Shown: positions 3 through 32,234 of the stretch, piece after piece
How positions within the stretch are numbered: position 1 is the first letter of the stretch
Layout: each line of letters begins with the position of its first letter
Source of the DNA: a virus
Lineage: Duplodnaviria > Caudoviricetes
Reading direction: 5' to 3' (one strand)
DNA length: 64,000 nucleotides
Virus record (IMG/VR): IMGVR_UViG_3300032237_000561
Location: 1-64,000 of that record
Translations under genes and position numbers: made by a program
Notes under the pieces: model-generated
What the model was told of the DNA's origin: nothing
Database searches by the model: none
Seen by the model: only the letters and a program-made list of their open reading frames with translations

Positions 3-2468
3 ACCGACGACGCGCATATCTTCCTCGATGTCACCAAGGATGAGCGCAAGGACACCGGCCCGGATCATGTGGTCTCGGAGAAGGACATCGTCCACTTCGC
101 CCGCGTGATGGCGGCATGTGAGGCCAACGAGCAGCCCTACCCGCGTCAGCTGGTGGCGTTCCTGGCCCGCTACGCCCAGACCGCCGATGACCGGCCCTCG
201 GACTATCAGGCCCCCAACACCGAGGACGCGGAGCCGTCGCTGAACAAGCTGCGTGACTTCGCTGACCGCAAGCAGGAGGACGACTTCGGCGATATGGCCG
301 GACGGGTCCATGAGATTCAGGACGCGGTCGACAACGCCCGCAAGGACGGGGTGGATGCCTCGCAGTTCGTCGCGGCGGTGCGCCGGATTGTGGCCGACAA
401 CGGTACTCCCGACGGCTACGAGGCAGTACCTGGTGGCGCAAAAGGAACTCAGCTTTATCGTGAGAAGGCGGACGGAAAATCCGTTGGCGAAGCATGGGGT
501 GCTGATCGGGGCAACAGGGGTATCGAGGTTGGCCCGAATGGCAATCGTCAAGTCAAGTTTGACGGCAGTGGATCGCAAGGGCCGGACAACGGTAAGTTCA
601 ATTACGACGGCGGCGCATACGGCGGTGCTAGTGGCAAAGCTGACCCCCAGGGGTTTGCCGATAGCTTCCCAGGCGCGGCCCCTGACGCTCCCACACCCAA
701 CGGTGCCCGTGGCGGTCGTGGCGGCAACCCCCTGACCCCGCAGTCGGTCGGCAACGGTGCCGTCAAGCCTGGCTCACCTCCCGCCCCAGGTGCCCCCGTC
801 AAGCCCGGTGCTCCCGGTGCTCCCGGTGCCCCTGCTACTCCCGGTGCGGCCAGTGGCTTGCCTGCGGCAGGCGGCGGTACTGCGCCCGGCGGCGGTACTG
901 CGCCCGGCGGTGGCATGACCACAGGCGATGTTGCCGATGGTGGTGTAGCTGGTGCCGAGAACGGCAACAACTCGGCGATCACCTCCGATTCCCTCGCGGG
1001 CGGTAAGTACAAGGTCCAGAAGGGCGATACCCTCTCGGACATCGCCCAGCGCAGCTACGGCGACATGAACAAGTACCAGGACCTCGCGAAGGCCAATGGC
1101 ATCGCGAACCCGGACGTGATCACCGAAGGCCAGGAGATCGACATCGCCAACCCGACCGGTAACGGTGGGGTCTCCGGCGACAAGACCAACCCGGCGGGCG
1201 GCGGGTCGGACAAGAACCTCTCCACACCGGAGGCACCGGCGGCGACGACCGACGCGATAGCTCCCCCGCAGTCTCCTGGCGCGGGGACACCTGGTAGCAC
1301 CAGCAGCACGAGCGCGACCGGTGCCGCACCGGGGGCGGCAGAGGTGGGTGGGGTTCCTGCACCTCCCCCTGCACCCGCCCCCATCAAGGCGCAGAGTTCA
1401 CATCAGCGTCGGGCGGCTCCGACCGCCACGACACCGGCGGACCCTAACGCGGACCCAAATGCCACAACACCCGCGACGACGACTGCGCCCAAGCCGGGCG
1501 CGGCGGCGACTACCCCTCCGGCTCCGGCCTCAACGACCCCCGCACCGGGTGTCGCGGCCACCCCCGGTGGTGCAACCACACCGGGCACCGGTAGGTCTCA
1601 GCCGAAGGCTGGTCCTAGCGAGAGTGGCGACACCTACGACCCCAACGATCCCAACCAGACCCAGCAGCAGCAGGGGACCGGAGCGGACCGCAATGGTGGC
1701 GGACAGGCCGAGAACCCGAGCATGGGTGGCGGAATGGACGCGATGAGCGGTCTCGGTGGCCTGGGTGATCTGGCTTCCGGTGTCGGTTCGGCCCTCCCGG
1801 ACCTGGCTCAGGGCGCGATGTCGGCAGCCCCGGCCATCGCGAGCGGTGTCGGTAATGCGTTCAGCGGACTCATGTCCGGCCTGGGCGGCATCCTCGGCGC
1901 GGCCTCGCCCTCATCATCGCTGTTCTCCAGCCGTCAGGACTTCGACGACTGGGTCCGCTACGCCTACCCCACCGCTGACGGTGAGGGGAAGCTGCAGCCG
2001 CACACCCACCCGTTCGCCGGTTCGGGCTATCCGGGTCCGCTCGACATCGACACCTCCGAGGACTACGCCGACAAGGCCCGCAAGAAGCACGACGACGTGA
2101 CCGACCTGGGTGACGACCCGTTGTCGACCCCGATGGGTAAGTGGCAGCGTCAGTCGTCCCTCGATGACGACGATGACGGCCCCTACCGTGAGGCCAGCTT
2201 CGATGGGTACGACGACAACTCCGACATCGTCCGCTCGTTCCAGGCCAACCTGGGCGAGACCGCGCTCGGCGCGGGTGCCGGTGGTGGCGGACGGTTTGAC
2301 GACCTGGCCGGTGCCGCGCAGGGTTTCCTGCGGACCGCAGGACGGAACTACTCAATGGCCGAGCAGTCGGAACTGATCCGCGAAGGCGATAAGGGCGGGG
2401 CACGCAACCTCGACTCCCTGGACCTGACCGGCACCCATTACGAGGACATGCACACCCTCGGCTGGTGA
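3..2468 (+). CDS. 5'-truncated low-complexity head-region protein with a LysM domain
   Basis: Frame is open from position 3. LysM signature YKVQKGDTLSDIAQRSYGDMNKYQDLAKANGIANPDVITEGQEIDI at ~1002-1146 within G/P/A/T-rich linkers. Lies directly upstream of the prohead protease gene. Confidence 0.8.
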   Translation, partial: TDDAHIFLDVTKDERKDTGPDHVVSEKDIVHFARVMAACEANEQPYPRQLVAFLARYAQTADDRPSDYQAPNTEDAEPSLNKLRDFADRKQEDDFGDMAGRVHEIQDAVDNARKDGVDASQFVAAVRRIVADNGTPDGYEAVPGGAKGTQLYREKADGKSVGEAWGADRGNRGIEVGPNGNRQVKFDGSGSQGPDNGKFNYDGGAYGGASGKADPQGFADSFPGAAPDAPTPNGARGGRGGNPLTPQSVGNGAVKPGSPPAPGAPVKPGAPGAPGAPATPGAASGLPAAGGGTAPGGGTAPGGGMTTGDVADGGVAGAENGNNSAITSDSLAGGKYKVQKGDTLSDIAQRSYGDMNKYQDLAKANGIANPDVITEGQEIDIANPTGNGGVSGDKTNPAGGGSDKNLSTPEAPAATTDAIAPPQSPGAGTPGSTSSTSATGAAPGAAEVGGVPAPPPAPAPIKAQSSHQRRAAPTATTPADPNADPNATTPATTTAPKPGAAATTPPAPASTTPAPGVAATPGGATTPGTGRSQPKAGPSESGDTYDPNDPNQTQQQQGTGADRNGGGQAENPSMGGGMDAMSGLGGLGDLASGVGSALPDLAQGAMSAAPAIASGVGNAFSGLMSGLGGILGAASPSSSLFSSRQDFDDWVRYAYPTADGEGKLQPHTHPFAGSGYPGPLDIDTSEDYADKARKKHDDVTDLGDDPLSTPMGKWQRQSSLDDDDDGPYREASFDGYDDNSDIVRSFQANLGETALGAGAGGGGRFDDLAGAAQGFLRTAGRNYSMAEQSELIREGDKGGARNLDSLDLTGTHYEDMHTLGW

Positions 2469-2481
2469 GCAGGAGGACTGA

Positions 2482-5400
2482 GTGAGCACCCGGCACATCG
2501 CCGCCGAGACCGCTCGGCTGCACGACCTTACCCCTGAGGGGTCTTCTGGTGGTGCGTCCAAGAGGTTTCGTCAAAAGCTGGCCTCCGATGGTTTTACCGT
2601 CGATGAGGGTTTCCGGCTCAAGCCCGGCTATCTCTACACAGTGGTGCGCGCGATCAGTGCACGGGTCAATCAGAACTATGACGGCTGGCCGTCCGACGAG
2701 CTGAAGAAGTCCTACAAGACGTTCATCGGCAAGCCCTGCTTCGTCAACCACGAGAACCACGACCCCACCAAGGCCCGTGGTGTCGTCGTTGCGGCGCGGT
2801 ATGTCGAAAACGGCATGGATAAGTACGTCGAGGTCGTGCAGGAGATCGACGCGGGACGCTTCCCTAAGCTGGCCCATGAGATCAAAACCGGTGGCCTGGA
2901 TAGTGTTTCGATGGGGGCCGAGGCCGGTTTCACTATTTGCAGCTACTGCCACAACAAGGCTACCGATACCCACGACATGTGTGACCATGTCATCAACCAC
3001 AAGGGCAAGACCCTCTCACGCTTGGACCGCAAGACCGGTAAACGCGAAGATGTCTTGGTCTTCGAGTCCTGCCACAAGATCAGCTTCTTCGAGCTGAGTT
3101 ACGTCTTCGAGCCTGCCGACGAGACCGCCGTCGCGTCCAAGGTCGTGGTGGCCGGACTGCGTACCGCCGACACCCTCCCCGAGCAGAGCGGTGCCGCCAG
3201 CGGTACCTCTGCCGCGACTCCGTCGACCGGCGGATCGAACGATGGTAGTGCTGCAGGCGGTCTGCTGCAGACCATGAAGAACGACAACGCGCAGGGGATC
3301 GCCGAGTCTGCCGCCGGTTCTTCCTACGACCTGGGTGGGTCCGGCAAAGGCTCGACCAACGTCAAGGGCCAGCCGACCAACAATTACGACTGCACCGGCT
3401 TGGCCGGTGATCTGATGTCGGCGACCACCGGCAAGCAGGACCCCAGTGCTCCGATGACCACCGACGGCAAGGGTGGCCGGTTCAACACTACGACCGACAT
3501 GAAGAGCATGGGCCTGGTTCCTGGGATCAGCCCCGGTGAGTTCAATATCGGCCTGAACCCCAATCCGGGGACCAGCGGACACGCGGCGGTCCAGCTCCCC
3601 GGTGGCCAGAGGGCCGAGTCGAGCGGTAGGGACGGCGTGGAGTTCGGTCCCGGTGCCCGCGCGATCACCGATAAGCCCTTCACCCAACAGTGGCACATAC
3701 CGGGGACCTCCTACCCGGCTGGGGTCAATCCTCTGGGTGACCCCCGCAACGCGACCCCCTCGGTGGAACAGCTCCTGCTGCCCAGGACCTCAAGCCGCCA
3801 GGACAGTGCCGATCTCGCTGAGATCATGGCGATGGCCCGGACCGCGTCCGAAGACCTGGCCGTTCAGCCCCCTCCCGGTACCCCCACGATTCCCCAGAGC
3901 GTCATTGACAGCACCCCGGTGATCAACCTGTCCCCGGCGACCGAGCTGACCGGCCACGAGGCACCTGGACTTCCTAAATCTTCTGGCAAGTACACCAAGG
4001 ACGATTTCAATCACCCTTCCGGAAAGAAGCCGTGGGAGCGTGAAAATGAGTCCGATGCCGAGGATGCCGCTGCCATCGAGATCGAGTCGATGCTGCTGCG
4101 TACCGCCGAATTGACCCCCGAAGAGCTGGCCCGTAATGCCATGCACACCAGCATCATGACGACCTTGCCGACTTACGCTAAGGCGCATTTGGCGATGGAC
4201 GAACGCGGTGCCCCGAGTGGTGAAAGTATTGACTACGGATCGGGTCAGGCCGGGGTCCACCTGGCACCGACGGTCGGGCACAAGACTTTTGAGCCGTACT
4301 GGCATGAGGGTTCCGAGCCGGACTACAGGTCCGCCGACGAGATTCCTCCAGGTGCCCACGACCGGCTCACGAGCCTGAACGTCCTTAACGTCTTGCAGCC
4401 CGCCGACCGGGCCATCGCGATTAAGACGATGGGCGATAAGATGGCCCCCGGCGGACACGGCGTGGTCAGCGTTCGCAAGTGGAGCGGGGACGTGCAGAAT
4501 TCCGCGCCCCACCGCGATTACCTGGATCGTCAACCCGACCCGTCGGAAGACCCCAATTCTGTCATTACCGGTGGCGCGGGCGACCCGCGCTACCAGCACG
4601 GCTACACCAATCACCGCGAGCTGCTTGACGAACTGCAGGGCCACCTGGGTGACGGGTTTGATGTCAGTCCCGCCTATTACACCGAGCAGCACCCCACCGA
4701 CCCCAACAAGACGGTGAAGAGGCCGATTGGCTCTGGGTTCGCCGCTTACATCGTCAAGCACCCCGCTTCAATGGAAAGGAGCGGCGCAGTGAAAAGACTT
4801 GCGCGGCAACGAGCTTTACGATTGGCCTTCGGCGAGACCGAGGCCCCGATTGCGGTCGACACCCTCCGCGAGGAGGGTTCTGCCCCCGAGGATGACAATA
4901 ACGACTTCGAGCGTTACGTCGAGCCGCCGAAGGACCTGCAGGACCCCGACCTGTCGGAGGCCGGTCAGGTTGACCGCCAGCAGGAAGAGGCCGGTGCCCC
5001 CACCGATCAGACTGGTGGTGTTCCTGGTCCCGCCGAGGGCGGTGCCCCCCAGCAGCAGTTCATGACCCTGCAGATTCCGATCCCCGGCGGGGCACCCCAG
5101 ATTCCCCAGCAGGCCGCGCCGCCGCAGATGGCGCAGCCTCCGATGCCCGAAGAAGACCCTGCCGCGCAACCCCCGCAGCAGATCGCCGCGTCCCTGCTCG
5201 ACTACTTCGACGGCTACTACGGTCGTCGTGTGGCGAACTGGATGGACGCTATAGAAGCTCGACGGGATATGAATCCCGCCGAAGCCGCCGACTATCGACG
5301 GCAACTAGGAAAACTCTCGACCCTGGAAAACGGACGAGAACATTCAACAACCAATAGGAACCCCACGAAAGGAACCGCCAAGATGGCACGCAACAGCATC

Positions 5401-6558
5401 GCCAGCCGCAACAAGGTGGCGACCACTGGGCGGCGACAGCATTTCGCTGAAGGTCCGCTCGTGGACGGTGGCGACCGCAGTCGCAACGACCAGGGCGAGC
5501 AGGAAGAGGCTTTCATCAGCCAGACCCCTCCCCCAGTCTCCGGCGACTTCGTCACCGGTGAGCACCCCGGCATCAGCAATACCGAGCACAGCCTGGTGGC
5601 TCGTGTCCAGCAGGGCCGGGAGCAACTCCTCCGCGATGCCCGTCAGCTGGCCGCGATGCAGCAGCGTCGTGCCTCTGGCGAGGCCGGTGGTCCTACCGCC
5701 ACAGTCGTCGACCCGCGTGTCAACGCCGGTCCGGGTGCCGAGGAGCTGACCGGAGACGGTTTCATCTCGGCGGACCCCAACGACGGTGTCGTCCCGACCA
5801 ACCCCAAGGATGCCTCACTGCGCGCCTTCCAGGCGTTCGACGGCTGGCTGGCCCAGAAGACCGGTAAGTCTTCGCGTCGCCACACCGAGGCCAACATCAA
5901 GAAGGCTGCCGCCGCGTTCACCCGCGAGGCGGGCATCAGCCCCCAGATGCTGTTCCCCGCGCTGGGCATCGTCCTGCGCGAGGCACGTAAGAACGACAAA
6001 GCCAAGAAGGGAGCCTCCATGCGTAAGCGTTCGAACGATTCGCTGGAAGTCGCAGCACCGGACGGTCGCATCGACGTGGAGGCCCCGGTTTCGGGAACTA
6101 CCGACGCGGATGCACAAGCGTCGCAGTTCGACCTGCACGACTTCGGCCAGAACGCCGGAGACAGTGTCGCCAAGCCCGATCTGAGCACTGATCAGAACTG
6201 GGCACCTGGCGAAGCCTCTAAGACCAGCGCGATCAAGACCGCAGGTGGCCTCCTGGCCATGCGGTGTGCCGAAGGCATGATCGAGGCTGGCCTGGAGCCG
6301 AACGACCGCGAGCGGAAGTATCAGCTCGCTGCGGAGTTCGAAAACATGAATCGTGGCCTGATCCAAGATCGGGTCGCGCTTCTCGAAAGGTTCGCCTCGG
6401 TACGCCAGGCAGACCTTAGAAGGGTCGCCAGCGGAAGTTCTCGCGGGGCCGCACGTTCGCCGATCCCGGCAGGTCTCGGTGGTGGAACTCGCACCGCTGC
6501 GGCAGGCATGAGGACGGCGGCGAACGACCCCAGTAATGACAGCTCGCTGTTCATCTGA
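2482..6558 (+). CDS. Prohead (capsid maturation) protease polyprotein: protease + NlpC/P60 + SAM methyltransferase-like domain + scaffold
   Basis: N-terminal FVNH..D and DSVSMG His/Ser motifs with a CxxC..CxH Zn finger (aa ~45-226). YDCTG...GHAA NlpC/P60 dyad (Cys 3391, His 3580). IDYGSG...LNVLNV...YQHGYT class I MTase motifs (~4108-4760). Helical C-terminus. GGAGG RBS; located before decoration and capsid genes. Confidence 0.8.
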   Translation: MSTRHIAAETARLHDLTPEGSSGGASKRFRQKLASDGFTVDEGFRLKPGYLYTVVRAISARVNQNYDGWPSDELKKSYKTFIGKPCFVNHENHDPTKARGVVVAARYVENGMDKYVEVVQEIDAGRFPKLAHEIKTGGLDSVSMGAEAGFTICSYCHNKATDTHDMCDHVINHKGKTLSRLDRKTGKREDVLVFESCHKISFFELSYVFEPADETAVASKVVVAGLRTADTLPEQSGAASGTSAATPSTGGSNDGSAAGGLLQTMKNDNAQGIAESAAGSSYDLGGSGKGSTNVKGQPTNNYDCTGLAGDLMSATTGKQDPSAPMTTDGKGGRFNTTTDMKSMGLVPGISPGEFNIGLNPNPGTSGHAAVQLPGGQRAESSGRDGVEFGPGARAITDKPFTQQWHIPGTSYPAGVNPLGDPRNATPSVEQLLLPRTSSRQDSADLAEIMAMARTASEDLAVQPPPGTPTIPQSVIDSTPVINLSPATELTGHEAPGLPKSSGKYTKDDFNHPSGKKPWERENESDAEDAAAIEIESMLLRTAELTPEELARNAMHTSIMTTLPTYAKAHLAMDERGAPSGESIDYGSGQAGVHLAPTVGHKTFEPYWHEGSEPDYRSADEIPPGAHDRLTSLNVLNVLQPADRAIAIKTMGDKMAPGGHGVVSVRKWSGDVQNSAPHRDYLDRQPDPSEDPNSVITGGAGDPRYQHGYTNHRELLDELQGHLGDGFDVSPAYYTEQHPTDPNKTVKRPIGSGFAAYIVKHPASMERSGAVKRLARQRALRLAFGETEAPIAVDTLREEGSAPEDDNNDFERYVEPPKDLQDPDLSEAGQVDRQQEEAGAPTDQTGGVPGPAEGGAPQQQFMTLQIPIPGGAPQIPQQAAPPQMAQPPMPEEDPAAQPPQQIAASLLDYFDGYYGRRVANWMDAIEARRDMNPAEAADYRRQLGKLSTLENGREHSTTNRNPTKGTAKMARNSIASRNKVATTGRRQHFAEGPLVDGGDRSRNDQGEQEEAFISQTPPPVSGDFVTGEHPGISNTEHSLVARVQQGREQLLRDARQLAAMQQRRASGEAGGPTATVVDPRVNAGPGAEELTGDGFISADPNDGVVPTNPKDASLRAFQAFDGWLAQKTGKSSRRHTEANIKKAAAAFTREAGISPQMLFPALGIVLREARKNDKAKKGASMRKRSNDSLEVAAPDGRIDVEAPVSGTTDADAQASQFDLHDFGQNAGDSVAKPDLSTDQNWAPGEASKTSAIKTAGGLLAMRCAEGMIEAGLEPNDRERKYQLAAEFENMNRGLIQDRVALLERFASVRQADLRRVASGSSRGAARSPIPAGLGGGTRTAAAGMRTAANDPSNDSSLFI

Positions 6559-6602
6559 TCATCGAGCACAACAACTCTAACGAGAACTGAAAGGAGGAGG
6601 AG

Positions 6603-7139
6603 ATGTTTCGTCCACCGTTGTCCAATCCGGCCCAGAAGCGCACGTTGCGTCCGCTCTATGCGAACCACCAAGCGACTCCTTGGGGCGGGTTCCTCGACCC
6701 CGACCTAGACATCAACTTCGACATCCTTCCCGGCACCGTGATGCAGCGGCTGTACGGTGAGGTTTTTGCCCCCTACGTGGGAGCAGCGGGCACCGTGCCC
6801 TTCGGTCTGTCGGCCCTGTTCGTCGCGCCCCGTCTGGGCGTGAACGAGGTCTCCAGCACCGGCACCGGCCTGTTCACTGTATGGGTCGGTGGCGACCAGT
6901 CCGTCTTCGAGGTCTTGGCTCCGGCCTTCGACATCGAGGCCGATTGGCCGTCCGTCAACAACACCGGCCCACGTCGGGTCCTGCTGACCGCCAACTCCTC
7001 GGGTCGTCTGACCCCGGAAGGCGTGACTGCAGAAAACGCCATCGCGGAACTGATCGACATCCCGTCACCGGACAAGATCGTCATCCGTCTCAACCGTGTC
7101 GACCTCTCGTCGGCAACACCACTGGCAGGGGGTAGCTAG
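6603..7139 (+). CDS. Capsid decoration/cement protein (putative)
   Basis: 178 aa beta-rich ORF with strong RBS (AAGGAGGAGG) immediately upstream of the major capsid gene; call is positional. Confidence 0.6.
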   Translation: MFRPPLSNPAQKRTLRPLYANHQATPWGGFLDPDLDINFDILPGTVMQRLYGEVFAPYVGAAGTVPFGLSALFVAPRLGVNEVSSTGTGLFTVWVGGDQSVFEVLAPAFDIEADWPSVNNTGPRRVLLTANSSGRLTPEGVTAENAIAELIDIPSPDKIVIRLNRVDLSSATPLAGGS

Positions 7140-7141
7140 CC

Positions 7142-8143
7142 ATGAGCCTTCCAGTGGCAGCAGGTAGCGGCTTGGGCCGCTTCGCCCGGTCGTCCGAAGA
7201 CTACGTCTCGGACATCGTGGGAGCCAAGCGTCGCCTCGGCGGTCGCAAGCTCTCGGCTCGCGAGAAGCAGGCGAAACTCGCACACATTCTGGCCGACAAG
7301 ACCGGCGGAATTCAGCGACTCGGGCAAAGTATGATCGGCCCGATCCAGCTGCAGCTCCGCTACCAAGGTATCTTGCGGAATGTGTTGCTGGAGGACACCC
7401 TCACACCGGGTGTTCCGATCTTCTACGACGTGCTCGATGACCTCGGTCGTGCCTATATGCTGCACGGTAACGAGGGCGAGATCAAAATCACGCCGTTCGA
7501 AGGCAAGCGCGTCGAGGTGCAGCTGTTCCGCATCGCGTCATTCCCGCAAATCAAAAAGGAAGACCTGTACTACCTCCGTAGCAACATTGTGGAGTACACG
7601 CAGGACATGACCAAGCAGGCCATCATGCGGCAGGAAGACAGCAGGCTCATCACGCTGCTCGAAGCCGCCGCTGTGTCCTACCGCGCGGTCGACACTTCCT
7701 CGGTCCCCGGCTCGGGTGCACTGCCCAACGAGATCACCGTCGCAGGTAACTACCTGCAGCCGGATGACCTCTACACGGCGGTCACCTACACCGACCAGCG
7801 TCAGTTGGACAGCTCGCGTTTGCTGTGCAACCCGCAGGAGTACCGGGACTTCTACCGGTGGGATATCAACACCACCGGTTGGGCGTTCAAGGACTCGGTC
7901 GTTGCTGGCGAGCGTATCGTGCAGTTTGGTGAGTTCCAGATCGGCAAATCCATCATCATCCCGCGTGGCACCACCTACCTGACCCCGGACCCCGAGTTCC
8001 TCGGTGTCTTCCCGGTCATGTACTCCCTCGATGTCGAGGAGAACAACCAGGTAGAGCAGTTCCACAAGGGCTGGGTCATGGACGAGTTGGTCGGAATGGC
8101 CGTCCTCAACCCTCGTGGCATCGTGATCCTCCGCAAGGCGTAA
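7142..8143 (+). CDS. Major capsid protein (HK97 fold)
   Basis: 333 aa; internal VQLFRIASFPQI and C-terminal GWVMDELVGMAVLNPRGIV are typical of large-myovirus capsid proteins; follows protease/scaffold and decoration genes. Confidence 0.85.
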   Translation: MSLPVAAGSGLGRFARSSEDYVSDIVGAKRRLGGRKLSAREKQAKLAHILADKTGGIQRLGQSMIGPIQLQLRYQGILRNVLLEDTLTPGVPIFYDVLDDLGRAYMLHGNEGEIKITPFEGKRVEVQLFRIASFPQIKKEDLYYLRSNIVEYTQDMTKQAIMRQEDSRLITLLEAAAVSYRAVDTSSVPGSGALPNEITVAGNYLQPDDLYTAVTYTDQRQLDSSRLLCNPQEYRDFYRWDINTTGWAFKDSVVAGERIVQFGEFQIGKSIIIPRGTTYLTPDPEFLGVFPVMYSLDVEENNQVEQFHKGWVMDELVGMAVLNPRGIVILRKA

Positions 8144-8153
8144 TCGCGATCTA

Positions 8154-8210
8154 CAGCAAACACTCGGGGCGGCAATCTGGAGCAATCCGGGTGCCGCCCC
8201 GAGTTTGCTG
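8154..8210 (+). terminator. Long stem-loop after the capsid gene (terminator or processing site)
   Basis: cagcaaa-ca-ctcggggcggca-a-tctgga GCAA tccggg-tgccgccccgag-tttgctg: about 25 bp stem with a GNRA tetraloop. Confidence 0.7.
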
Positions 8211-8240
8211 AATAGCCAATATGGAAAGGTTGAGGCGGGG

Positions 8241-8690
8241 ATGTCGGACTGGGTTGACACCAGCGGAAACCCCTGGAGGTTTTCGTCGCTGACAGGTAGC
8301 TGGCAGGCTTATACCGGCACTACCTGGATCAACGCACCGTTGCCTTCTGGCGGTCTGGTCCGCGCAGAAACCTTGAACCCCAGCAGCAATGTCGTCATAG
8401 TCGAGACGATGGGGCCGCAGGGGCCTGCAGGGCCGCAGGGGCCTGTGGGGCCACCCGGTGTCAGCGGGATTTCCATCGAGGAAATCTTGTCCATCGAGTA
8501 TCAGGATGGTGTCAACAACACCTTCCCGTTATCAAATAGTGCCGATCTCAGTCAGGTTTTCCAAGTTTTTCGTAACGGCCTCATGGAATTTCAGGGCCAC
8601 GGCTACCTGGTGACACCGACACACGTCACCTTCACCACCCCGCCCCTGGACAGCGATGTCCTGACGGTCATCTACCAGAAAGCGCAGTAA
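8241..8690 (+). CDS. Small virion protein with short collagen stretch and C-terminal beta domain
   Basis: GPQGPAGPQGPVGPPG; C-terminal domain resembles that of 8696-9778; ATG 8241 is preceded by a purine-rich RBS. Confidence 0.75.
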   Translation: MSDWVDTSGNPWRFSSLTGSWQAYTGTTWINAPLPSGGLVRAETLNPSSNVVIVETMGPQGPAGPQGPVGPPGVSGISIEEILSIEYQDGVNNTFPLSNSADLSQVFQVFRNGLMEFQGHGYLVTPTHVTFTTPPLDSDVLTVIYQKAQ

Positions 8691-8695
8691 CAAAC

Positions 8696-13490
<4,795 letters not shown>

Positions 13491-13491
<1 letters not shown>

Positions 13492-15870: not shown

Positions 15871-17751
15871 ATGCGCCGTGTTGTTTCTGCCCGCGAGCAG
15901 GTGGAGATGCTGTCCTGGTTTCGACAGGCTGCTCCTGGCGAATTTACCCCTGGTGCTGGGCTGCCGTTGTCTCCTAAGGCCACCCCGCCGCCTCGTATTC
16001 AGAACCCTGGTCCGGCAGCGATCCCGCAGCGCGCCCCGGAGAAGCCGCTGCCCGAAGGCGACTGGGTCTCGCACCCGGATTGGCGTAATGCCTCCGACGG
16101 CCTGGCGTTTTACTCTTCGGTCCGACCGCCGATATCCTCAGACGTGCCGCATCCCAGCGAGGTGCTGGACCCATCCAACCCTGATCACGTCGAACGCCGC
16201 GTCTACAAAGTCACCCACCCCAAGACCAAGTCCGTCACCGAATACCATTACCCATCATGGATCGACCAGGCCAAGGATTCCGCCGACCCGGTTAACGACC
16301 CGTGGGGCGTGCAGACCATGCCCGACAAGGTCATCCACTTCCCCAACGGCATCCCCAAGGGCGAAGACGGCAAGACTCTGACCACCAAGCGTGGAGTGCC
16401 GGTTGATAAGGACACCCGCTGGCGTAACCGCAATGGCATCGACATTTCCAACGCGCACGGCCAGCCGGACAACACCCCCGAGCAGTTGGTGCAGAACCGG
16501 GTTGGCCACGAGCAATCGGCCACCCCGGAGCAGCACGAGAACCGCACCTGGTACCGGGGTGCACACGAGGAAACCAAGAACCTCGCCGACAAGACCCACG
16601 GCGACCACGAGCGCGTGGTGCACACCGTGTCGGCATTCTCTCCCAAAACTGAGTGGGACGAGAACATGGAGAAGGCGTTCCACTGGACCCTGAACAACCG
16701 CCCCGGCGGCGTGGGGCCGGGCGAGGGGCAAGCCTCTGAACCGTCGGTGCCGGGAATGCAGTCCCCGGTCAGCAAGGCCAGGGACATCTACAACCTGCCC
16801 GACGGCGAGTTCCAGAAGGTCAACCAGGGTCCGAAAACCTCTTCGTTCGCCAACAACATTCTCGACGACACCCCGGAGCGGGAGCCGCGCCCTGGCGTTC
16901 CCGACGACCACGGCTTCTATCAACATCAGATCAATCCTCACACCGGTGAGCCGGACTGGCGACTGCACACCGACCAGGACACCACTGTCGACACCCACGA
17001 CGTGCGGATGGCCAATACTGCTCCGCAGCAGCCCGGCGAGTCTCGCGAGAGCTACATGGGAAGACTGCGTCAGCTGCGTTACGAGACCCCGCTTCAGTTC
17101 GGCGCGAAGATCACTATGCCCGCACCCCGGCAGCAGGATGGGGAGTCGCACGAGGATTACTTCAAGCGGCTCAGTGATTCGGGCTTTAGCCCGACCATGA
17201 AGGAAAACGGCAAGGTGCATCCGGGCAAGGGCAAGACTCTTTACCCCGGCTACGAGATGATGGCCCGCAGCAATTGGGAGGCCCGCCGTCGCCTGAACGC
17301 CGCCGAGGAAGACCCTCTGCGTCACCGCGTTCCTAAGCAGGGCCAGAGCGTCACCTGGGGGAAATTTAAGGACGACCTGGATGAGGCTAAGAATAAGCAC
17401 ATGCCGCAGCCCGGCGAGCCACTCAAGAGCTTCCCTGACGATCCCACCGGAGAAGCGGTGGAGCAGTGGATGTCGAGAAATCCGCTCAAAGAACCGATAC
17501 CGCGCTACCGACGCGATATACGCAACGACAAGGGCGAATCGTACTGGACCGACCCGCGTCGACCTGACCTCGGCGATATTCGGCAGGCACCAGGATACGG
17601 TTTCCAGCCCTCGCACATGCGGCGCAAGAGCTACATCGAAGAACTTCTTTTTTCGGTCTCAGACACGTTGCAGCGCACCGCATTTGTCGATGAGGTAACA
17701 GAAACCCGGCATGTGCTGGCCTGGGTGGAGAACCTTTTCGGGGAACGCTGA
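15871..17751 (+). CDS. Leader-bearing protein 1; DUF7178-like (remote helix-hairpin-helix glycosylase-like) domain
   Basis: N-terminus MRRVVSAREQVEMLSWFRQA. Motifs WYRGAH, SAFSP..W..N, GPKTSSFANNI, TVDTH and QSVTW recalled from this phage family. Confidence 0.6.
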   Translation: MRRVVSAREQVEMLSWFRQAAPGEFTPGAGLPLSPKATPPPRIQNPGPAAIPQRAPEKPLPEGDWVSHPDWRNASDGLAFYSSVRPPISSDVPHPSEVLDPSNPDHVERRVYKVTHPKTKSVTEYHYPSWIDQAKDSADPVNDPWGVQTMPDKVIHFPNGIPKGEDGKTLTTKRGVPVDKDTRWRNRNGIDISNAHGQPDNTPEQLVQNRVGHEQSATPEQHENRTWYRGAHEETKNLADKTHGDHERVVHTVSAFSPKTEWDENMEKAFHWTLNNRPGGVGPGEGQASEPSVPGMQSPVSKARDIYNLPDGEFQKVNQGPKTSSFANNILDDTPEREPRPGVPDDHGFYQHQINPHTGEPDWRLHTDQDTTVDTHDVRMANTAPQQPGESRESYMGRLRQLRYETPLQFGAKITMPAPRQQDGESHEDYFKRLSDSGFSPTMKENGKVHPGKGKTLYPGYEMMARSNWEARRRLNAAEEDPLRHRVPKQGQSVTWGKFKDDLDEAKNKHMPQPGEPLKSFPDDPTGEAVEQWMSRNPLKEPIPRYRRDIRNDKGESYWTDPRRPDLGDIRQAPGYGFQPSHMRRKSYIEELLFSVSDTLQRTAFVDEVTETRHVLAWVENLFGER

Positions 17752-20084
17752 TGGCCCGCCGGATCGTCACGGCCCGTGAGCAGGTGGAGATGCTGTCCCC
17801 CTGGCGGCGCGAGGCTCTTATCAAAGAGGCAAAATACCCGCAGGTGTGGAGCGGCAAAGCCCCCTACGGACACCTCCCTTCGGGTCGCGCCCGTAACCGG
17901 CCACCGTCGGTGCGCCGCGATGCCGATGATCCTAATTCGGAGATTATCGACCCGAGCGAGATTCGCTATGAAGAATATGGTGATTCGGTTTCGGCCTTCC
18001 ACCCCAATGGCGAGCATATGGGTAACTATTCATGGGAAGACGATGGCGATCACGCCCACATCGGTATCGCCCAGGTCGATCCCAGGTATCAAGCGCAGGG
18101 TGTTGCTGGTGGCATCATCGACCACATTCGCGAACATCACCAACCTGACCTCGCCCATTCTGGGTACCAGGGTAATGGCACACTAAGTTATCAGGGCCGT
18201 GCCGGTGCCCTGCGCGACTTGGGAAACACCGAAGAAGAACACAACGATTACTTCAACACCACCCCATACAACTACGGGGAGTCACAGCCAGCGCAATTTA
18301 GTCTAAGGGACCCTGGTGGTGGAAGGAAGATACCCACCAAAACCGATGCCCAGCAGCGGGCGCATGACGAGTTGGTGCGGCAGTTCGAGGAAGACAAGAA
18401 CCACCCGAATTTCACAGGACAGCGCAGCAACGGCTCTTACTCTGGTAACTCAGACATGGTTGACGAGTATGGCGACCGGCACGAGTATGGCCACGACTCC
18501 GACGGCAATTATGTCGGAATATCTGACGGCAACAAGGATTCCGACGGGTACAGCGAAGAGGGCTACAACAGCGGAGGCTACGACCGCGACGGCTATAACC
18601 ACGAAGGTCTCGATCAAGAGGGCCGTGACGAGTACGGGTTCTCTGGGAAAACGGGACTAGACCGGGACGGGAAAACGCGGCACGGGTATACCCCCGGAGA
18701 CGGTACAGCTCCTGAGGGCACGGTCCCGATGAGTCAGATGGCGGAATATGCCAGTTCCCGGCACATCGCTCCGACGATGTATGCCGTGCGGCACCCCGGT
18801 GAGGTCAGCCCACACTCTGGTGGCCACCACGTCGGCAACGGAGACACCCTGTATTCCTCGCTGGATCGGGCGCGTGAGGTGGCCTACCATCCCGATGACC
18901 CCAGCAAGGACAAGAATATCGTCAGCGTCAATCACCTCGACCCCGATTATTTGCACACCGACGCAACAGGGTCGAGTCCTTGGGACTTTCACTATGCCCC
19001 CGTGTCGCCAATGTGGGATGCCGAAGATACGGCCTCTACCCCGGCGAGCGTCGTCCACGACCCGCAACGCCATCAGCGCATCCTGGGCGACCTGGGGCAT
19101 GGCTGGAGCCAGAGCACCGAGTCGCCCCTGAGCGAGAACTCGGGATTTGAATACACCGACCCAAACAGCGGTCGCACTGGCCGCATGTACCAGGAGCGCA
19201 ACGGAACCTGGGCCACACAGCATGAGCCACTGTTTGGTGCCCGCAGGCAAAACCGATACGACAACCACCGCGATGCCGCTAACGCCATCCGCGAAGGAAC
19301 CCAGCCCGGCCCCACAATGGACCAGCACGCCCTGGAGGTCAACAATAACTACGAGGCCACAGGGGGAGGCAATGTGGACTGGGACCCGCATCCCAATGGT
19401 GGGGGACTCATGGCGAGAACACCTCACGGCGACCTGCATCTGACCCAAGACCCCAATACGGGATACTGGAACTACCACGCCGGGCCGCACGGTTCCCAGC
19501 CCGGCGACGAGGGCGGCATAAGAAGCCCGATTCCTGAAAACAGCCCAACCCGCGCCGCCGCATACGGCATTCAGTCCATCACCCGTCGCCCATTTCACGG
19601 CGGTCTGGCCGACGAACTTGGCGACGGGTGGGGGCCGCACCCATCGTCAGTAGGGGGCTATGCGCGGCGGCTGCCGTCGGGCAATCATGCGTTTGTGAGG
19701 AAAAACGACGACGGGACCTACAATTCGGGTATTCAACGAGACAACGGCTGGGGCCAGCCATACGGACGGCCAACAGTTAATCGGGACAGCCCAGACCTTG
19801 CCCAAGCGAAGGAATTCATCCATCACCGCGAAAATCCTGTTCCGGCCAGTGAACTAGGAAAGGGGTGGGAAGATGAAGACGGGGGGCCTCGGTCATTCCC
19901 TGTCTACACCCAACAAGGTTATCATCCCTCTGGGGCCAATGCCATTGTCGCCTGGAGCAATCAGGGTGGCTGGAGACCTGGCGTGTATCACCAGGGAAAA
20001 TCGTATAACTCTCCTTTACACAAGACTCCCCATGAAGCTGCCAATTGGGCCAACAACCTCATGGATGACCTCGGTAACAAATAA
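17751..20084 (+). CDS. Leader-bearing protein 2; GNAT acetyltransferase + acidic pentapeptide repeats + repeated small domains
   Basis: N-terminus MARRIVTAREQVEMLSPWRREA. Acetyl-CoA motif A VDPRYQAQGVAGGII. GY[DNS]xx repeats at ~18460-18690. Three LGxGW-initiated modules. Confidence 0.7.
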   Translation: MARRIVTAREQVEMLSPWRREALIKEAKYPQVWSGKAPYGHLPSGRARNRPPSVRRDADDPNSEIIDPSEIRYEEYGDSVSAFHPNGEHMGNYSWEDDGDHAHIGIAQVDPRYQAQGVAGGIIDHIREHHQPDLAHSGYQGNGTLSYQGRAGALRDLGNTEEEHNDYFNTTPYNYGESQPAQFSLRDPGGGRKIPTKTDAQQRAHDELVRQFEEDKNHPNFTGQRSNGSYSGNSDMVDEYGDRHEYGHDSDGNYVGISDGNKDSDGYSEEGYNSGGYDRDGYNHEGLDQEGRDEYGFSGKTGLDRDGKTRHGYTPGDGTAPEGTVPMSQMAEYASSRHIAPTMYAVRHPGEVSPHSGGHHVGNGDTLYSSLDRAREVAYHPDDPSKDKNIVSVNHLDPDYLHTDATGSSPWDFHYAPVSPMWDAEDTASTPASVVHDPQRHQRILGDLGHGWSQSTESPLSENSGFEYTDPNSGRTGRMYQERNGTWATQHEPLFGARRQNRYDNHRDAANAIREGTQPGPTMDQHALEVNNNYEATGGGNVDWDPHPNGGGLMARTPHGDLHLTQDPNTGYWNYHAGPHGSQPGDEGGIRSPIPENSPTRAAAYGIQSITRRPFHGGLADELGDGWGPHPSSVGGYARRLPSGNHAFVRKNDDGTYNSGIQRDNGWGQPYGRPTVNRDSPDLAQAKEFIHHRENPVPASELGKGWEDEDGGPRSFPVYTQQGYHPSGANAIVAWSNQGGWRPGVYHQGKSYNSPLHKTPHEAANWANNLMDDLGNK

Positions 20085-20450: not shown

Positions 20451-21422
20451 ATGTCCCGCCGTATCGTCACTGCTCGCGAGCGGGTCGAGATGCTGTCGCC
20501 GTGGCGTACCGCCGAGCGGGCCGACAGGTTTGAGTGGGAACGCAGCTTCGACGGCCCCGGCGGCTGGATTCTCGTCACCCGGACCCCGGACGGCAACCCT
20601 GTCACGATCAGGACCGAGCCGACCAGGGGACAGCGTAGTGCCGCATTAGGGTCTGACAGGCCCACTACCGCAATCAACATTAACGACACCCACCAGGACT
20701 ACACCGGACAGATTCTGCGCGGCGAGAAGACCGTTGAGACCCGCAACACCAACTCGCTAAGGCCGTTGATAGGCGGCAGGTACGGAATCTCTCGCACCCA
20801 CGACAGCCGCAAGGTTCCGGCAATGGTGGTCGGCTACGCCACCCTCGGCGAGCCGAAGCTGTACGAGAACGCCGAAGACTTTGATGCCGACTACGACCTT
20901 CACCAGGTCGGCACAGATTCCCCGCACCACTTCAATAAGAGCCACACCGGGGTTAAGTTCGGCTACCCGCTGCACGACGTAGAGCAGGAGCCAGAACCGT
21001 TCCCGCCAGGACCGGGCAATCAGAAGTGGCGGTCGATCACCGCCATCCAGCAGCCCCCTGAGGGCCTGAACTTCCAGCACTGGGCGACCAACAAGCAGAT
21101 CGCCGATCACTTCGGTCGGTTCAATATGCCGATCATCGCCCCGGCGGTCACCGCTCATCTCAACGGCGAGATGGTCGGGTCGGTGGAATGGCACCCACAT
21201 TACGACAATGCCCCCGACCGGCGGGGCGAGGTCTCGATGATCAACGTCCCAGATAAGCACCAACGAAAGGGGATCGGGACCGCCCTGTACGACTGGGCGC
21301 GCACCAACGTGGAGCCGAACCTGCACCACTCACCGTTCCAGAGTTACGACGGCGAGGCGTGGGCCGCTGCCGAGGAGGACCGGCAGCACGAACCGTCTTA
21401 CCACACTTCCGCACTGTTTTGA
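20451..21422 (+). CDS. Leader-bearing protein 3; ASCH domain + GNAT acetyltransferase
   Basis: N-terminus MSRRIVTARERVEMLSPWRTA. ASCH signature ILRGEKTVETR. GNAT motif A VPDKHQRKGIGTALYD. Confidence 0.8.
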   Translation: MSRRIVTARERVEMLSPWRTAERADRFEWERSFDGPGGWILVTRTPDGNPVTIRTEPTRGQRSAALGSDRPTTAININDTHQDYTGQILRGEKTVETRNTNSLRPLIGGRYGISRTHDSRKVPAMVVGYATLGEPKLYENAEDFDADYDLHQVGTDSPHHFNKSHTGVKFGYPLHDVEQEPEPFPPGPGNQKWRSITAIQQPPEGLNFQHWATNKQIADHFGRFNMPIIAPAVTAHLNGEMVGSVEWHPHYDNAPDRRGEVSMINVPDKHQRKGIGTALYDWARTNVEPNLHHSPFQSYDGEAWAAAEEDRQHEPSYHTSALF

Positions 21423-22561: not shown

Positions 22562-22570
22562 TTCCCGGAC

Positions 22571-22639: not shown

Positions 22640-22640
22640 T

Positions 22641-23306: not shown

Positions 23307-23320
23307 GAGAGAAGGAAGAT

Positions 23321-23602: not shown

Positions 23603-23618
23603 GCAGCAACGCTGTGAT

Positions 23619-23650
23619 CACTCCCCGGTGCCAGACCGCACCGGGGAGTG
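23619..23650 (+). terminator. 13-bp perfect stem-loop
   Basis: cactccccggtgc CAGACC gcaccggggagtg, intergenic, no U-tract. Confidence 0.6.
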
Positions 23651-23674
23651 GCTGCTGACCAAAGGAGGAGACAG

Positions 23675-24664: not shown

Positions 24665-24677
24665 CCCAAGGAGAGCC

Positions 24678-26784: not shown

Positions 26785-26966
26785 TGGCAAGACCCACTAT
26801 CGCCCGGATCACCCTGGAGCGGGACATCACCGAATCTTTCCTTCGTCTTAGGCTGGCACGCGCCGAGCGTGACCGCAAAGAGGCCGAGGCGCACGAGGAG
26901 CGGCTGAACCGGCTGCTGGAGGGGATGCTGCGCGACGCGGCCCCGGTCGAGGAGATGGCTTCATGA
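26784..26966 (+). CDS. Small helical hypothetical protein
   Basis: Coupled on both sides (TGATG, ATGA). Confidence 0.6.
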   Translation: MARPTIARITLERDITESFLRLRLARAERDRKEAEAHEERLNRLLEGMLRDAAPVEEMAS

Positions 26967-27364
26967 GGATCGTTAGCGCACGCGAGCAGGTGCAGCTCCT
27001 GGCTGCCTGGCGGCGTACCGCCGGTTGGGCTGACTGGAAAGTCACCAATGAATACCCCGAACACGGTGGTGGCGCGCGGGATGAGGAAGCCAGGTTAGAA
27101 AACGGACACACCCTCGGAATTGGCAGCGGAAACTGGAACTCCAACGGACCACCCTGGCGGTGGCATTGGCACATCAGCGATGCCAACGACGAGTATGTGA
27201 CCGGCAGCGGCGAAGATAATCCTCCCGCTCACAGCCCGGAAGAGGCACGGCAGACAGCCGAACAGGCTTACGAGAAGATTTTCCCGGCAGGTAAGGCCAA
27301 CACCGGACCCCACGACTCCGGTGTGGACTACTCGGACCTGAACAAGTTCATGGAGGGTTCATGA
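26963..27364 (+). CDS. Leader-bearing protein 4; small W-rich domain
   Basis: N-terminus MRIVSAREQVQLLAAWRRTA; ATGA overlaps at both ends. Confidence 0.7.
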   Translation: MRIVSAREQVQLLAAWRRTAGWADWKVTNEYPEHGGGARDEEARLENGHTLGIGSGNWNSNGPPWRWHWHISDANDEYVTGSGEDNPPAHSPEEARQTAEQAYEKIFPAGKANTGPHDSGVDYSDLNKFMEGS

Positions 27365-28568: not shown

Positions 28569-28569
28569 C

Positions 28570-28608
28570 CCTGTGAAGGCTGCCACCCCCACCAATAAGA
28601 CGTAGAGG
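28570..28608 (+). promoter_or_regulatory. CCTGTG-N17-CAATAA motif upstream of the sheath gene
   Basis: Same upstream hexamer and spacing as the other copies; no clear anti-SD stem. Confidence 0.5.
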
Positions 28609-28629
28609 GCATGGAAAGGGACTTACCAG

Positions 28630-30345: not shown

Positions 30346-30392
30346 TCAGCAAACCAGAAATTACACATCTAATTCGAGGGAGGTGACCACCG

Positions 30393-30860
30393 GTGGAGTC
30401 AAAAACCAGAATTGGTGGAGCCGGATTTACCACCATGACCTTCCGGGGCACCAGGTTGGCCTACATGCAGACACTGCAGGACACCCCGCCCCAGCCGGTG
30501 GCCGGTGCTCAAGTCGTGCAGGCCATCGACGACGAGCAACCGCAGGAGATCGTCACCTCGCTGGCTGTCGGTGCTGGCACACTCCGCATGACCTTCTACG
30601 AATTGTGGAATGAGCCGGTCTGGTCACGTTTACCAGGGCTGGAAGGAACGAACAACCTTCTCGAAGTTCTGAAGCGGCAAATCCAGATGGGTGAGGTCTC
30701 CTGCCGGAAGCTGATCAAGTCCCCGTCCGGGATCATCCGCGCCCGCGTCTACCACGGGTGTGTCCTGACCGACATCGACGAAGGCGAGCAGCTCAACATC
30801 GGGACGATGACATTGCCCAAAACGATAACAATGCAATATATCAAGACCACTATCGTCTAG
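30393..30860 (+). CDS. Tail tube protein
   Basis: 155 aa directly after the sheath; EIV....GTL....ELW and YHGCV motifs. Confidence 0.8.
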   Translation: MESKTRIGGAGFTTMTFRGTRLAYMQTLQDTPPQPVAGAQVVQAIDDEQPQEIVTSLAVGAGTLRMTFYELWNEPVWSRLPGLEGTNNLLEVLKRQIQMGEVSCRKLIKSPSGIIRARVYHGCVLTDIDEGEQLNIGTMTLPKTITMQYIKTTIV

Positions 30861-30869
30861 GAGTCTGCT

Positions 30870-32234
30870 GTGTCTATGCCCATCCAACGCCAGAGCGAAC
30901 AGTATGGCGCGTTCGACAGCGGCCCGCGCTGGGAGCGGGACCGGGGCAGTCATGACCTCCCCAAGGGTTTAGCTGGTTTGATGAACAGCATGGGGCCGAG
31001 CATCCAGGCCGGTTTGCTGAACACCCGACTGGCGGTCAACACCGAAGGCATGGACCCTGACAGCCACGCCTACCACACCGAGCTTCCGGTCAACGGCCCC
31101 GCGCCTGGCCGGATATACAACCCCGACTTCCGCGAGTACGAGCCGTCCGAACAGGACGAGCGCGACCAGGAGGGCGTGGCCGAGGACGACGAGTCGGGCT
31201 ACAACTGGGGACCCGATCCCCGCCGTGCGAGCCGCCACCCTTTTGACCGTACCGCCGGGGCGTGGCAGGACCTGATTGACAAAGACAGCCCCGGCCCCTT
31301 TGACGGCGAAAACCCCGAAGATTTCTTCACCAACTGGTTGGAGCGTGGCGGCGAAGAAGAGCACCGCCACCAAAAAGAGTCCGGTCGAATTAATGACTTT
31401 ATGCGGGGCAGTCACACCCCCGACCACGAGGTGCCGTGGGAAGAGACCGACGAGGGCTGGCATCATCCCGCGACCGGACAGAAAATCGTCCCCTCCGACG
31501 ACACTCCCGGTCACTGGCAGCTGACCTCTCCGACTGTCGGTGACCGTGGTATGGCCAAGATTCGGGCACCGCACGCCGACCCGCAGGCGATCATGGACTG
31601 GCAGAAATATCAGATGGGCGGTCCGGCACCCGAGGGCCACAAGCCGCAATTCCGCGACCACATTTTCCCGCCGAACCCGATCCCATCACGTCAGTCAGGT
31701 CTGTTTCGCAACGCCGGATGCGAAACCTGTGGCGTTCCCGTCTACCACATTTCTGGCACCGGCTGGGTCCATGCCGACGACGACGACAAAGACGGCGAAG
31801 AACACGACGAGGACCACCAGGCCGAGCCGGACCACGACGATGACCTCGGTCTGGGTTTGTCGTCGATGAACGCCGAACACGAACGGCGTGAGCTGCAGGG
31901 GCGGATCAGCGAGCCGGACGTGCATGTCCATCGTAATGAGCCGGATACCGAAGACTGGGAGAACGGCTACAAGGTCGAGCACAACGACCCCCGGTATCAC
32001 CGGTACGAACCCGACATGGAGCGCGAGGGTCGCCGTACCGCTGCCGGTGAGGCTCCCGCCCCTGTACAGGCACCTCAGGGTGGCGGCTACCAGATCGGTC
32101 ACCGGATCGGTCTGGACTGGCGGGACAAAGTAATCCCCGGCACCGTCATCGGCCTTGACGGCCCGAGTGTCAAAATCCGTTGGGACGACAAACAGTATTC
32201 CACCGAGGAGCCTCGTAATATCCGACTCCTCTAG
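30870..32234 (+). CDS. Acidic/His-rich modular protein with R-x-A junctions and SH3-like C-terminus
   Basis: Segments separated by RLA, RTA, RNA and RTA; CETC motif; C-terminal IG.RI...GTVIG...V.IRWDD. Confidence 0.65.
   Translation: MSMPIQRQSEQYGAFDSGPRWERDRGSHDLPKGLAGLMNSMGPSIQAGLLNTRLAVNTEGMDPDSHAYHTELPVNGPAPGRIYNPDFREYEPSEQDERDQEGVAEDDESGYNWGPDPRRASRHPFDRTAGAWQDLIDKDSPGPFDGENPEDFFTNWLERGGEEEHRHQKESGRINDFMRGSHTPDHEVPWEETDEGWHHPATGQKIVPSDDTPGHWQLTSPTVGDRGMAKIRAPHADPQAIMDWQKYQMGGPAPEGHKPQFRDHIFPPNPIPSRQSGLFRNAGCETCGVPVYHISGTGWVHADDDDKDGEEHDEDHQAEPDHDDDLGLGLSSMNAEHERRELQGRISEPDVHVHRNEPDTEDWENGYKVEHNDPRYHRYEPDMEREGRRTAAGEAPAPVQAPQGGGYQIGHRIGLDWRDKVIPGTVIGLDGPSVKIRWDDKQYSTEEPRNIRLL

Follow-up and report, generated by a model that had tools for sequence, protein, structure and literature searches.

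The stretch analysed here, hereafter the window, comprises the first 64 kb of a 94.6-kb contig (IMG/VR record IMGVR_UViG_3300032237_000561). The phage it stems from is uncultured and related to the cluster C mycobacteriophages (Bixzunavirus). Its cement and major capsid genes are ∼81% identical at the DNA level to those of I3, Cali and Catera, and weaker matches extend to phages of Gordonia and Rhodococcus. The head module lies at the beginning of the window, where a gene for a LysM-containing protein (3–2468) is followed by that for a polyprotein (2482–6558) and, downstream of this protease–scaffold fusion, by the genes for the cement protein (6603–7139; PF23968) and the major capsid protein (7142–8143; phrog_2522). 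The polyprotein, a 1358-aa homologue of I3 gp103, consists of an N-terminal protease domain, two passenger cassettes and a scaffold-like region. Its domain junctions are marked by the tripeptide motif [R>K,H]-x-A, best represented by R-T-A, which is likely to be the cleavage consensus of this phage's head protease. The features discussed are compiled in Table 1.

Table 1. Motif sites, domains and leaders in the window (predicted cuts are marked by an arrow)
Feature	Position	Strand	Basis and remarks
Large LysM-containing head-module protein, C-terminal 821 aa	3..2468	+	Homologue of I3 gp102; RTA at 2331-2339, 44 aa before the C-terminus
Predicted prohead protease domain, polyprotein residues 1-226	2482..3159	+	phrog_18299 head maturation protease, E 1e-20
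RTA site 1, right behind the last protease strand	3160..3168	+	Translation and model; candidate analogue of the herpesvirus R site
Passenger cassette 1, NlpC/P60-like cell-wall peptidase (YDCTG...H)	3169..3837	+	Transitive homology
RTA site 2, end of cassette 1	3838..3846	+	Translation, homologue comparison
RTA site 3 (IEIESMLLRTA), ahead of the methyltransferase cassette	4099..4107	+	Translation, homologues
Passenger cassette 2, class I S-adenosylmethionine (SAM)-dependent methyltransferase fold	4108..4818	+	AlphaFold2 (AF2) and Foldseek
RLA site, immediately upstream of the conserved scaffold start FGETEAP	4819..4827	+	Translation, homologues
Conserved scaffold-like region (C-terminal part of phrog_2774)	4828..6489	+	PHROGs
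Tandem RTA sites GGGTRTA↓AAGMRTA↓A, 22 and 15 aa before the C-terminus	6490..6519	+	Candidate analogue of the herpesvirus M site
Conserved C-terminal tail ANDPSNDSSLFI, piece predicted to be released	6520..6558	+	Homologue conservation
R-F-A, residues 13-15 of the major capsid protein (GSGLGRFA↓RSSEDYV)	7178..7186	+	Homologue alignment
Leader MRRVVSAREQVEMLSWFRQA of 626-aa protein (DUF7178)	15871..15930	+	
Leader MARRIVTAREQVEMLSPWRREA of 777-aa protein	17751..17816	+	
Leader MSRRIVTARERVEMLSPWRTA of 323-aa ASCH+GNAT protein	20451..20513	+	Protein spans 20451-21422; GNAT, acetyltransferase
Leader MRIVSAREQVQLLAAWRRTA of 133-aa protein	26963..27022	+	
Fifth leader MRRIITAREQAEMLGPW of 257-aa ORF	62325..62375	-	Leader profile match, 34 bits
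454-aa modular protein (DUF7251)	30870..32234	+	RLA 31026, RTA 31248, RTA 32034

An earlier note on this DNA, made from the sequence, had proposed that the recurrent motif is a prohead-protease site. The nine positions on which it relied (R-T-A at 2331, 3160, 3838, 4099, 6490, 6511, 31248 and 32034, and R-L-A at 4819) are correct on translation, and its domain map also holds: the protease domain ends at about residue 224 with R-T-A following at residues 227–229, the NlpC/P60-like domain lies between R-T-A tripeptides and the methyltransferase occupies residues ∼556–760. The polyprotein contains five R-T-A tripeptides, as compared to 0.65 expected from its composition (Poisson P ∼6e-4), and 22 R-x-A against 10 expected, with R-T-A ranking only third by enrichment among the ∼1100 tripeptides of the protein. 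When the entire 94.6-kb contig was considered, head-core genes were found to encode six R-T-A against 1.1 expected, tail and baseplate genes one against 2.2, and non-structural genes six against 4.3. The R-T-A excess on the contig is thus restricted to the head genes, just as had been predicted for a comparison of head proteins with tail and replication proteins; R-x-A as a whole slightly exceeds expectation even among the non-structural genes (85 versus 67). The two occurrences that had been regarded as a caveat, because both were attributed to tail-region proteins, are within chance; that at 39765 indeed belongs to a tail gene, while that at 57732 lies in the non-structural part.

The candidate enzyme for cutting at these sites is the N-terminal part of the polyprotein. 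The assignment to the head maturation proteases in PHROGs covers polyprotein residues 66–221. The domain was folded with AF2 from an alignment containing 24 stand-alone and fused homologues, and the resulting model has a predicted local distance difference test score (pLDDT) of 88.7 and a predicted template modelling score (pTM) of 0.83; an earlier fold of residues 1–783 (alignment A2) was of low quality over residues 1–500 and usable for the methyltransferase alone. The best Foldseek matches of the protease model are T4 gp21 (5jbl) and herpesvirus proteases. Comparison by VIA-align gave Z 10.3 with the varicella-zoster virus protease (1vzv; root mean square deviation 2.3, 114 residues aligned) and Z 10.1 with T4 gp21 (5jbl; 2.6, 131 residues aligned, 21% identity). 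All of the top 37 entries are assemblins or gp21, and the next one, of an unrelated fold, has a Z score of 5.8. Judged by this model, the N-terminal domain is an assemblin-like beta-barrel of the assemblin/T4 gp21 type (MEROPS clan SH), and its position beside the scaffold and major capsid genes is the one occupied by proteases of this type.

Four possible members of a Ser-His-His/Glu catalytic triad, H90, S143 (within VSMG), H169 and E195, are invariant in a sequence alignment of 25 diverse homologues. Every one of these homologues, whether fused or stand-alone, also has a zinc-ribbon-like CxxC...CxH insert inside the protease domain, at residues 153–169 (window 2938–2988). Its H169 may complete the catalytic triad or, with C153, C156 and C167, coordinate zinc. 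The last strand of the model ends at residue 223 and confidence falls after residue 220, immediately ahead of the first R-T-A. A sequence search of the PDB with the cement protein, the whole polyprotein or its protease domain alone gave no match, and neither Pfam nor NCBIfam holds a family for the protease domain, either cassette or the scaffold. One relative of the protease, a 91%-identical fragment (P0391), is labelled as part of a Roseovarius metagenome-assembled genome; relatives of the window phage infect actinobacteria and the label is therefore probably a binning error.

Residues 228–452, between the first two R-T-A tripeptides, have no Pfam match of their own and were assigned through their homology to residues 701–856 of another homologue (P0017), which carry PF00877; they also resemble phrog_10780, the lysin region of tape-measure proteins. 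Behind the second R-T-A follows a module, SEDLAVxPPGTPTIPQSVID, that in other homologues stands directly behind the protease domain. The third R-T-A lies in a low-confidence stretch immediately before the folded methyltransferase domain and is kept as IEIE[SA]ML[LH]RTA in six homologues (P0002–P0006 and P0016). For the methyltransferase itself, pLDDT exceeds 85 over residues ∼560–760 and Foldseek retrieves SAM methyltransferases (e.g. 2p8j and METTL6) with probability 1.0.

The recurrence of the motif was further analysed in a set of 120 homologues of the polyprotein, which are related by descent, so that counts from this set are not independent. R-T-A is present in all 120 proteins, with 261 occurrences against 72 expected, and when each 15-residue context is counted once, 187 occurrences remain against 38 expected. 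The only tripeptides more enriched than R-T-A are the Cys/His motifs of the protease itself and the low-complexity PQQ. Among related tripeptides, KLA, KVA, KTA, RQA, RVA and RLA are enriched 2.5–4 fold, and proline at P2, the middle position, is depleted 5–7 fold. Nearly all homologues have an R-T-A 14–22 residues before the C-terminus, in contexts such as GGGTRTA↓, GMRTA↓ANDP and SGLVQGAQRTA↓G. The remaining R-T-A are found in mutually unrelated contexts (FGASRRTA↓, IEIEAMLLRTA↓, FE..VLRTA↓GFK[TV]A, GPPLHHSQRTA↓), often in tandem with only a few residues between copies (VLRTA↓GFKTA, RTAAAGMRTA, RTARRTA). The codons used for R-T-A vary from site to site.

Comparison of the homologues also reveals that the cassettes are exchanged to the residue at these sites. 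The protease domain closes with an invariant PADETAVASKVVVAG, behind which most distinct variants read L-(x)-[RKH]-x-A before their sequences diverge completely. The 223-aa NlpC/P60 cassette of the window sits exactly between RTA227 and RTA453, whereas one homologue has a 38-aa Cys-rich insert between the same two sites (P0005) and another has a single RAA and no first cassette (P0006). At the scaffold start, [FWY]GE.EAP is immediately preceded by [RKH]-x-A in 69 of the 84 distinct variants and by P1 Ala in 78 of them; at the last C-terminal site [RKH]-x-A is kept in 88/105 and P1 Ala in 102/105. Many further [RK]-x-A tripeptides (RVA, KTA and others) inside the scaffold are conserved together with all of the surrounding sequence; because the whole region is conserved, they are not assessable and were dropped as evidence. 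In one homologue (P0026, 2183 aa), a ∼300-aa cassette occurs as three tandem repeats, each ending in FGASRRTA↓AWGST; the cassette has therefore been duplicated together with its site. Three other homologues (P0043, P0045 and P0060) carry the Hint/intein-associated domain PF05203, and inteins have thus invaded the head gene in some phages.

Two further head proteins carry the motif at conserved positions. The site of the LysM-containing protein, F-[LQ]-R-T-A↓G-R-x-Y-S, is also present in I3 gp102, where additional [RK]-x-A tripeptides lie just upstream. The N-terminus of the major capsid protein is kept as GSGLGR-[FTIVYH]-[AS]-[RK]-x-S-[DE]-[DE]-Y-V in ∼120 homologues that share 79–98% identity; many of these read GSGLQRTA, resembling the scaffold C-terminal site SGLxQGxQRTA.

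Five ORFs of the window, encoding otherwise unrelated proteins, begin with the same N-terminal leader of ∼20 aa, M-(x)-RR-IV[ST]AREQVEML-(S)PW. Four of the five leaders end in R-x-A, as the earlier note recognized (RQA in the ORF beginning at 15871, REA at 17751 and RTA at both 20451 and 26963); the one beginning at 62375 does not. The leader is also carried by I3 gp110 (...PWIKHA) and gp111 (...PWYREA) and was found on three IMG/VR contigs, and a search with an exact DNA pattern matched only four viral contigs. A profile built from nine leaders was then compared to 1.84 billion protein representatives. The 150 matches listed, out of 163, are representatives of 33–1375 aa with at most 50% mutual identity, and the leader begins at residue 1 in almost all of them. 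Among these listed matches, 126 of 149 leaders have [RKH]-x-A 0–3 residues after the Trp, RTA being the commonest ending (50), followed by REA (21), RVA (12) and RLA (11), while P1' is A in 53, M in 21, S in 19 and G in 11; most of the deviating leaders have [LMH]-I-[ET]-A or R-x-G/S instead. The profile included the R and A columns and near-threshold matches are biased accordingly; 54 of the top 60 matches keep the motif despite this bias. The bodies of the listed cargo proteins, with leaders removed, are likewise enriched in R-T-A (35 versus 8.1 expected) and H-T-A (19 versus 6.8).

In some relatives (P0241, P0243, P0244, P0250, P0251 and P0273), several cargoes are joined in one polyprotein that contains the leader internally two or three times. 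All copies in one such lineage end in [MIL]-I-E-A rather than R-x-A, which suggests that the specificity of the protease has co-varied. The fifth leader of the window belongs to an ORF (61602–62375) in a minus-strand non-structural block, for which a Pfam search returned no family; it may encode a cargo that is left uncut or handled in another way, or may be a copy in decay.

Three other explanations of the leader and its motif were considered and rejected. The leader has the RR pair of a Tat (twin-arginine) signal peptide, but it continues into a charged helix, AREQVEML, lacks the hydrophobic region of a Tat or Sec signal, and has R-x-A instead of A-x-A at its end. Cleavage after Glu inside the leader, as in T4, is disfavoured since no such motif recurs at the junctions and R-T-A topped an unbiased tripeptide scan. 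Finally, the leaders differ at synonymous positions, as do the sites; the constraint therefore acts on the protein and not on a DNA or RNA signal, which led us to reject a recombination signal in the DNA and a conserved region for translation initiation.

Could chance, amino-acid composition and common descent explain all of this? R, T and A are frequent in a 62% GC proteome, and Ala/Arg-rich helices yield R-x-A, which is in line with the surplus of R-x-A in the non-structural genes, with the modest enrichment left in the window after multiple testing and with the scaffold sites that are conserved along with their surroundings. We nevertheless consider this explanation very improbable: the 4–5 fold excess over composition-matched expectation is confined to head proteins, the motif turns up again in contexts that are not homologous and among representatives no more than 50% identical to each other, proline is strongly depleted at P2, and the cassette boundaries match the motif to the residue.

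According to the mechanism that we favour, the serine capsid-maturation protease would cut after the Ala of [R>K,H]-x-A during head assembly, with A, S, G or M at P1'. A cut at RTA 227–229 would free the protease domain, a cut at 453–455 the NlpC/P60-like cassette, and cuts at 540–542 and at RLA 780–782 the methyltransferase cassette. At the tandem RTA 1337/1344 the last 15–22 residues of the scaffold would be removed, including the tail ANDPSNDSSLFI, which by analogy may bind the capsid. Fifteen residues would be trimmed from the capsid protein at R-F-A 13–15, and the ∼20-aa leader M-RR-IVTAREQVEML-PW-R-x-A would be removed from the cargo after having, probably, brought otherwise unrelated proteins into the prohead. 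The enzymes released in this way would stay in the head and be delivered with the DNA. The proposal of the earlier note, that the protease cuts after [RKH]-x-A, came through all the computational tests that were run, namely head-specific enrichment, recurrence in unrelated contexts, residue-exact cassette swaps, the capsid R-x-[AS] and the assemblin/gp21 fold; it is supported in part, and strongly only for [RH]-T-A and for [RK]-x-A at defined positions. To that note the present analysis adds the head versus non-head control, the cassette swaps, the leader survey, the capsid N-terminal site, the fold with its parallel to the herpesvirus R and M sites, and the data on phage G considered below.

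Several observations weigh against such cleavage. Because R-T-A is only the third most enriched of ∼1100 tripeptides in the polyprotein, its enrichment in the window alone is lost upon correction for multiple testing. The counts from homologues share ancestry and are not independent events, the scaffold-internal sites are indistinguishable from general conservation, and the leader profile itself favoured matches with R and A. About one third of the distinct polyprotein variants, including those of cultured C1 phages (VAGRQERQPDG), do not have a basic-x-Ala behind the protease domain. The fifth leader of the window, MRRIITAREQAEMLGPW, continues as W-T-H-G-P, with no R-x-A or other basic-x-Ala, and some lineages read I-E-A or H-I-T-A at the leader end. 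In the literature we found no proteomic, Edman or gel data on cleavage or virion termini for cluster C phages, and the paper on the cryo-electron microscopy of Myrna makes no mention of cleavage (PMC7150772). In phage G, N-terminal sequencing has shown that 27 residues are removed from the capsid protein (PMC5646251, Table 1), and by reference to the deposited sequence the cut can be placed after ...EGRVALA↓Q; P1 is therefore Ala, and P3 is also Ala, not a basic residue.

This last point bears on the possibility that the protease does process these proteins and that the determinant or the register differs: recognition might require no more than an exposed linker with Ala, Gly or Ser at P1, the cut might follow Arg, or a second protease, from the host, might trim the joints, the basic P3 serving another role. 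Consistent with it, P1 Ala is more constant than the basic P3, with I-E-A, I-T-A and L-Q-A occurring at leader ends and at the scaffold start and I-[ET]-A or x-x-G/S at the leader end in some lineages; P1 is G or S at some sites, for example in the R-F-S of capsid proteins; and phage G is cut after A-L-A (PMC5646251). On the other hand, P3 is Arg, Lys or His in the large majority of both the listed leaders and the scaffold starts (126/149 and 69/84), and the enrichment is specific to R-T-A and H-T-A and does not extend to x-T-A in general. Moreover, recognition by proteases with the assemblin/gp21 fold is of the P1–P3 type. A different determinant or register is thus unlikely in our view.

Slightly less probable still is that R-T-A is not cut at all and acts as a docking or assembly signal, contacting the capsid protein, the portal or the scaffold, with the leader and the scaffold tail staying on in the virion. 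The motif does lie in conserved regions that might form epitopes (the leader helix with W-R-T-A, and the scaffold tail), and the silence of the literature on cleavage agrees with this too. Yet an epitope would not be expected on both flanks of a cassette, in close tandem copies or at the exact end of the protease fold; the sequence around the tripeptide is otherwise unrelated, and the polypeptide itself includes a protease of the appropriate family.

Outside of the head module, the motif also punctuates the Asp/Glu/His-rich protein encoded at 30870, whose gene lies between those for the tail tube and the tail chaperone. Behind its R-L-A this protein has the module VNTEGMDPDSHAYHT, which in other phages stands behind leader and RTA (P0378) or leader and REA (P0244); a second of its modules recurs behind a leader in P0322. 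The 30870 protein, too, may be located in the head. The capsid gene is followed by a row of fibre-like genes (window 8205–15809) that includes a collagen-like Gly-x-y repeat, a very GC-rich ORF of 1220 aa and a 772-aa protein with nine IPT/TIG domains.

If [R>K,H]-x-A is the consensus for cleavage, the rule predicts exactly where the mature capsid, scaffold, protease and cargo proteins begin and end, and accounts for a head protease gene that also encodes a methyltransferase and a cell-wall peptidase. The cluster C mycobacteriophages are a large and easily grown group with more than 200 cultured members, and the leader is a possible tag for loading chosen proteins into the heads of phages that infect mycobacteria. 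A wider reading, which we put forward tentatively and rate at a little less than an even chance, is that Bixzunavirus-like actinophages share a system of programmable capsid loading, composed of a leader and R-T-A tag, cassette slots bounded by R-T-A, and herpesvirus-like R/M processing after Ala.

Processing of many head proteins by one protease is known from other viruses. SPN3US gp245 cuts after A-x-E and its propeptides contain multiple copies of the motif (PMC10052503). In this system, as in that of phiKZ gp175, many head and ejection proteins are processed at a single tripeptide consensus and N-terminal propeptides are removed, as predicted for the window; however, the motif is A/S/G-x-E, protease, scaffold and cassettes are not fused, and cleavage has been mapped by mass spectrometry. 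The capsid protein of phage G, gp27, is homologous to that of the window (E 2e-29) and is cut after Ala, but at A-L-A↓Q, with R-V-A two residues earlier and no basic P3, and no leader family has been reported for phage G. The two sites do not align, and the phage G cut was therefore rejected as a direct homologue of the window R-F-A.

In lambda (C/Nu3) and HK97 (gp4), protease and scaffold share one gene region by the capsid gene and both are removed during maturation. The window likewise has protease and scaffold functions beside the capsid gene, whereas lambda C is of the ClpP/S49 type and HK97 cuts after Lys in the delta domain; to our knowledge, neither lambda nor HK97 has passenger enzymes or a shared cargo leader. 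The gp21 protease of T4 cuts after Glu, at (L/I)-x-E. With T4 gp21 and the capsid targeting sequence (CTS) of IPI–III and Alt the window shares the protease fold, a short leader on unrelated proteins that ends in the protease consensus, and the occurrence of the site in many head proteins; as is characteristic of CTS-like elements, the window leader ends in the very motif found at the polyprotein junctions and the capsid N-terminus. It differs in the predicted P1 Ala, in having cargo also inside the protease gene, and in that gp21 is separate from the scaffold gp22. The leader has about double the length of the T4 CTS (MKTYQEFIAE-like), to which it is unrelated in sequence, and would thus be analogous rather than a member of the CTS family.

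Herpesvirus assemblins cut at (V/L/I)-x-A↓S, the R site ending the protease domain and the M site lying ∼25 aa before the C-terminus of the scaffold. The herpesvirus assemblin–scaffold proteins (pUL26 of herpes simplex virus and pUL80a of human cytomegalovirus) resemble the window polyprotein in fold (Z 8–10.3), in the N-terminal position of the protease within a protease–scaffold fusion, and in having a site where the protease domain ends and a further one ∼20 residues before the scaffold C-terminus. They differ in that P3 is hydrophobic in assemblin and basic in the window, and P1' is Ser as compared to A/M/S/G; in addition, the window protein belongs to an actinobacterial phage, has enzyme cassettes between protease and scaffold and a zinc-ribbon-like insert, and its cuts are predictions. 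If these are true, cleavage after Ala at the protease end and near the scaffold C-terminus would tie phage and herpesvirus maturation more closely than the Glu-specific enzymes of T4 and phiKZ do, and the shared loading system, if it exists, would come nearer to the maturation scheme of herpesviruses than any phage system so far.

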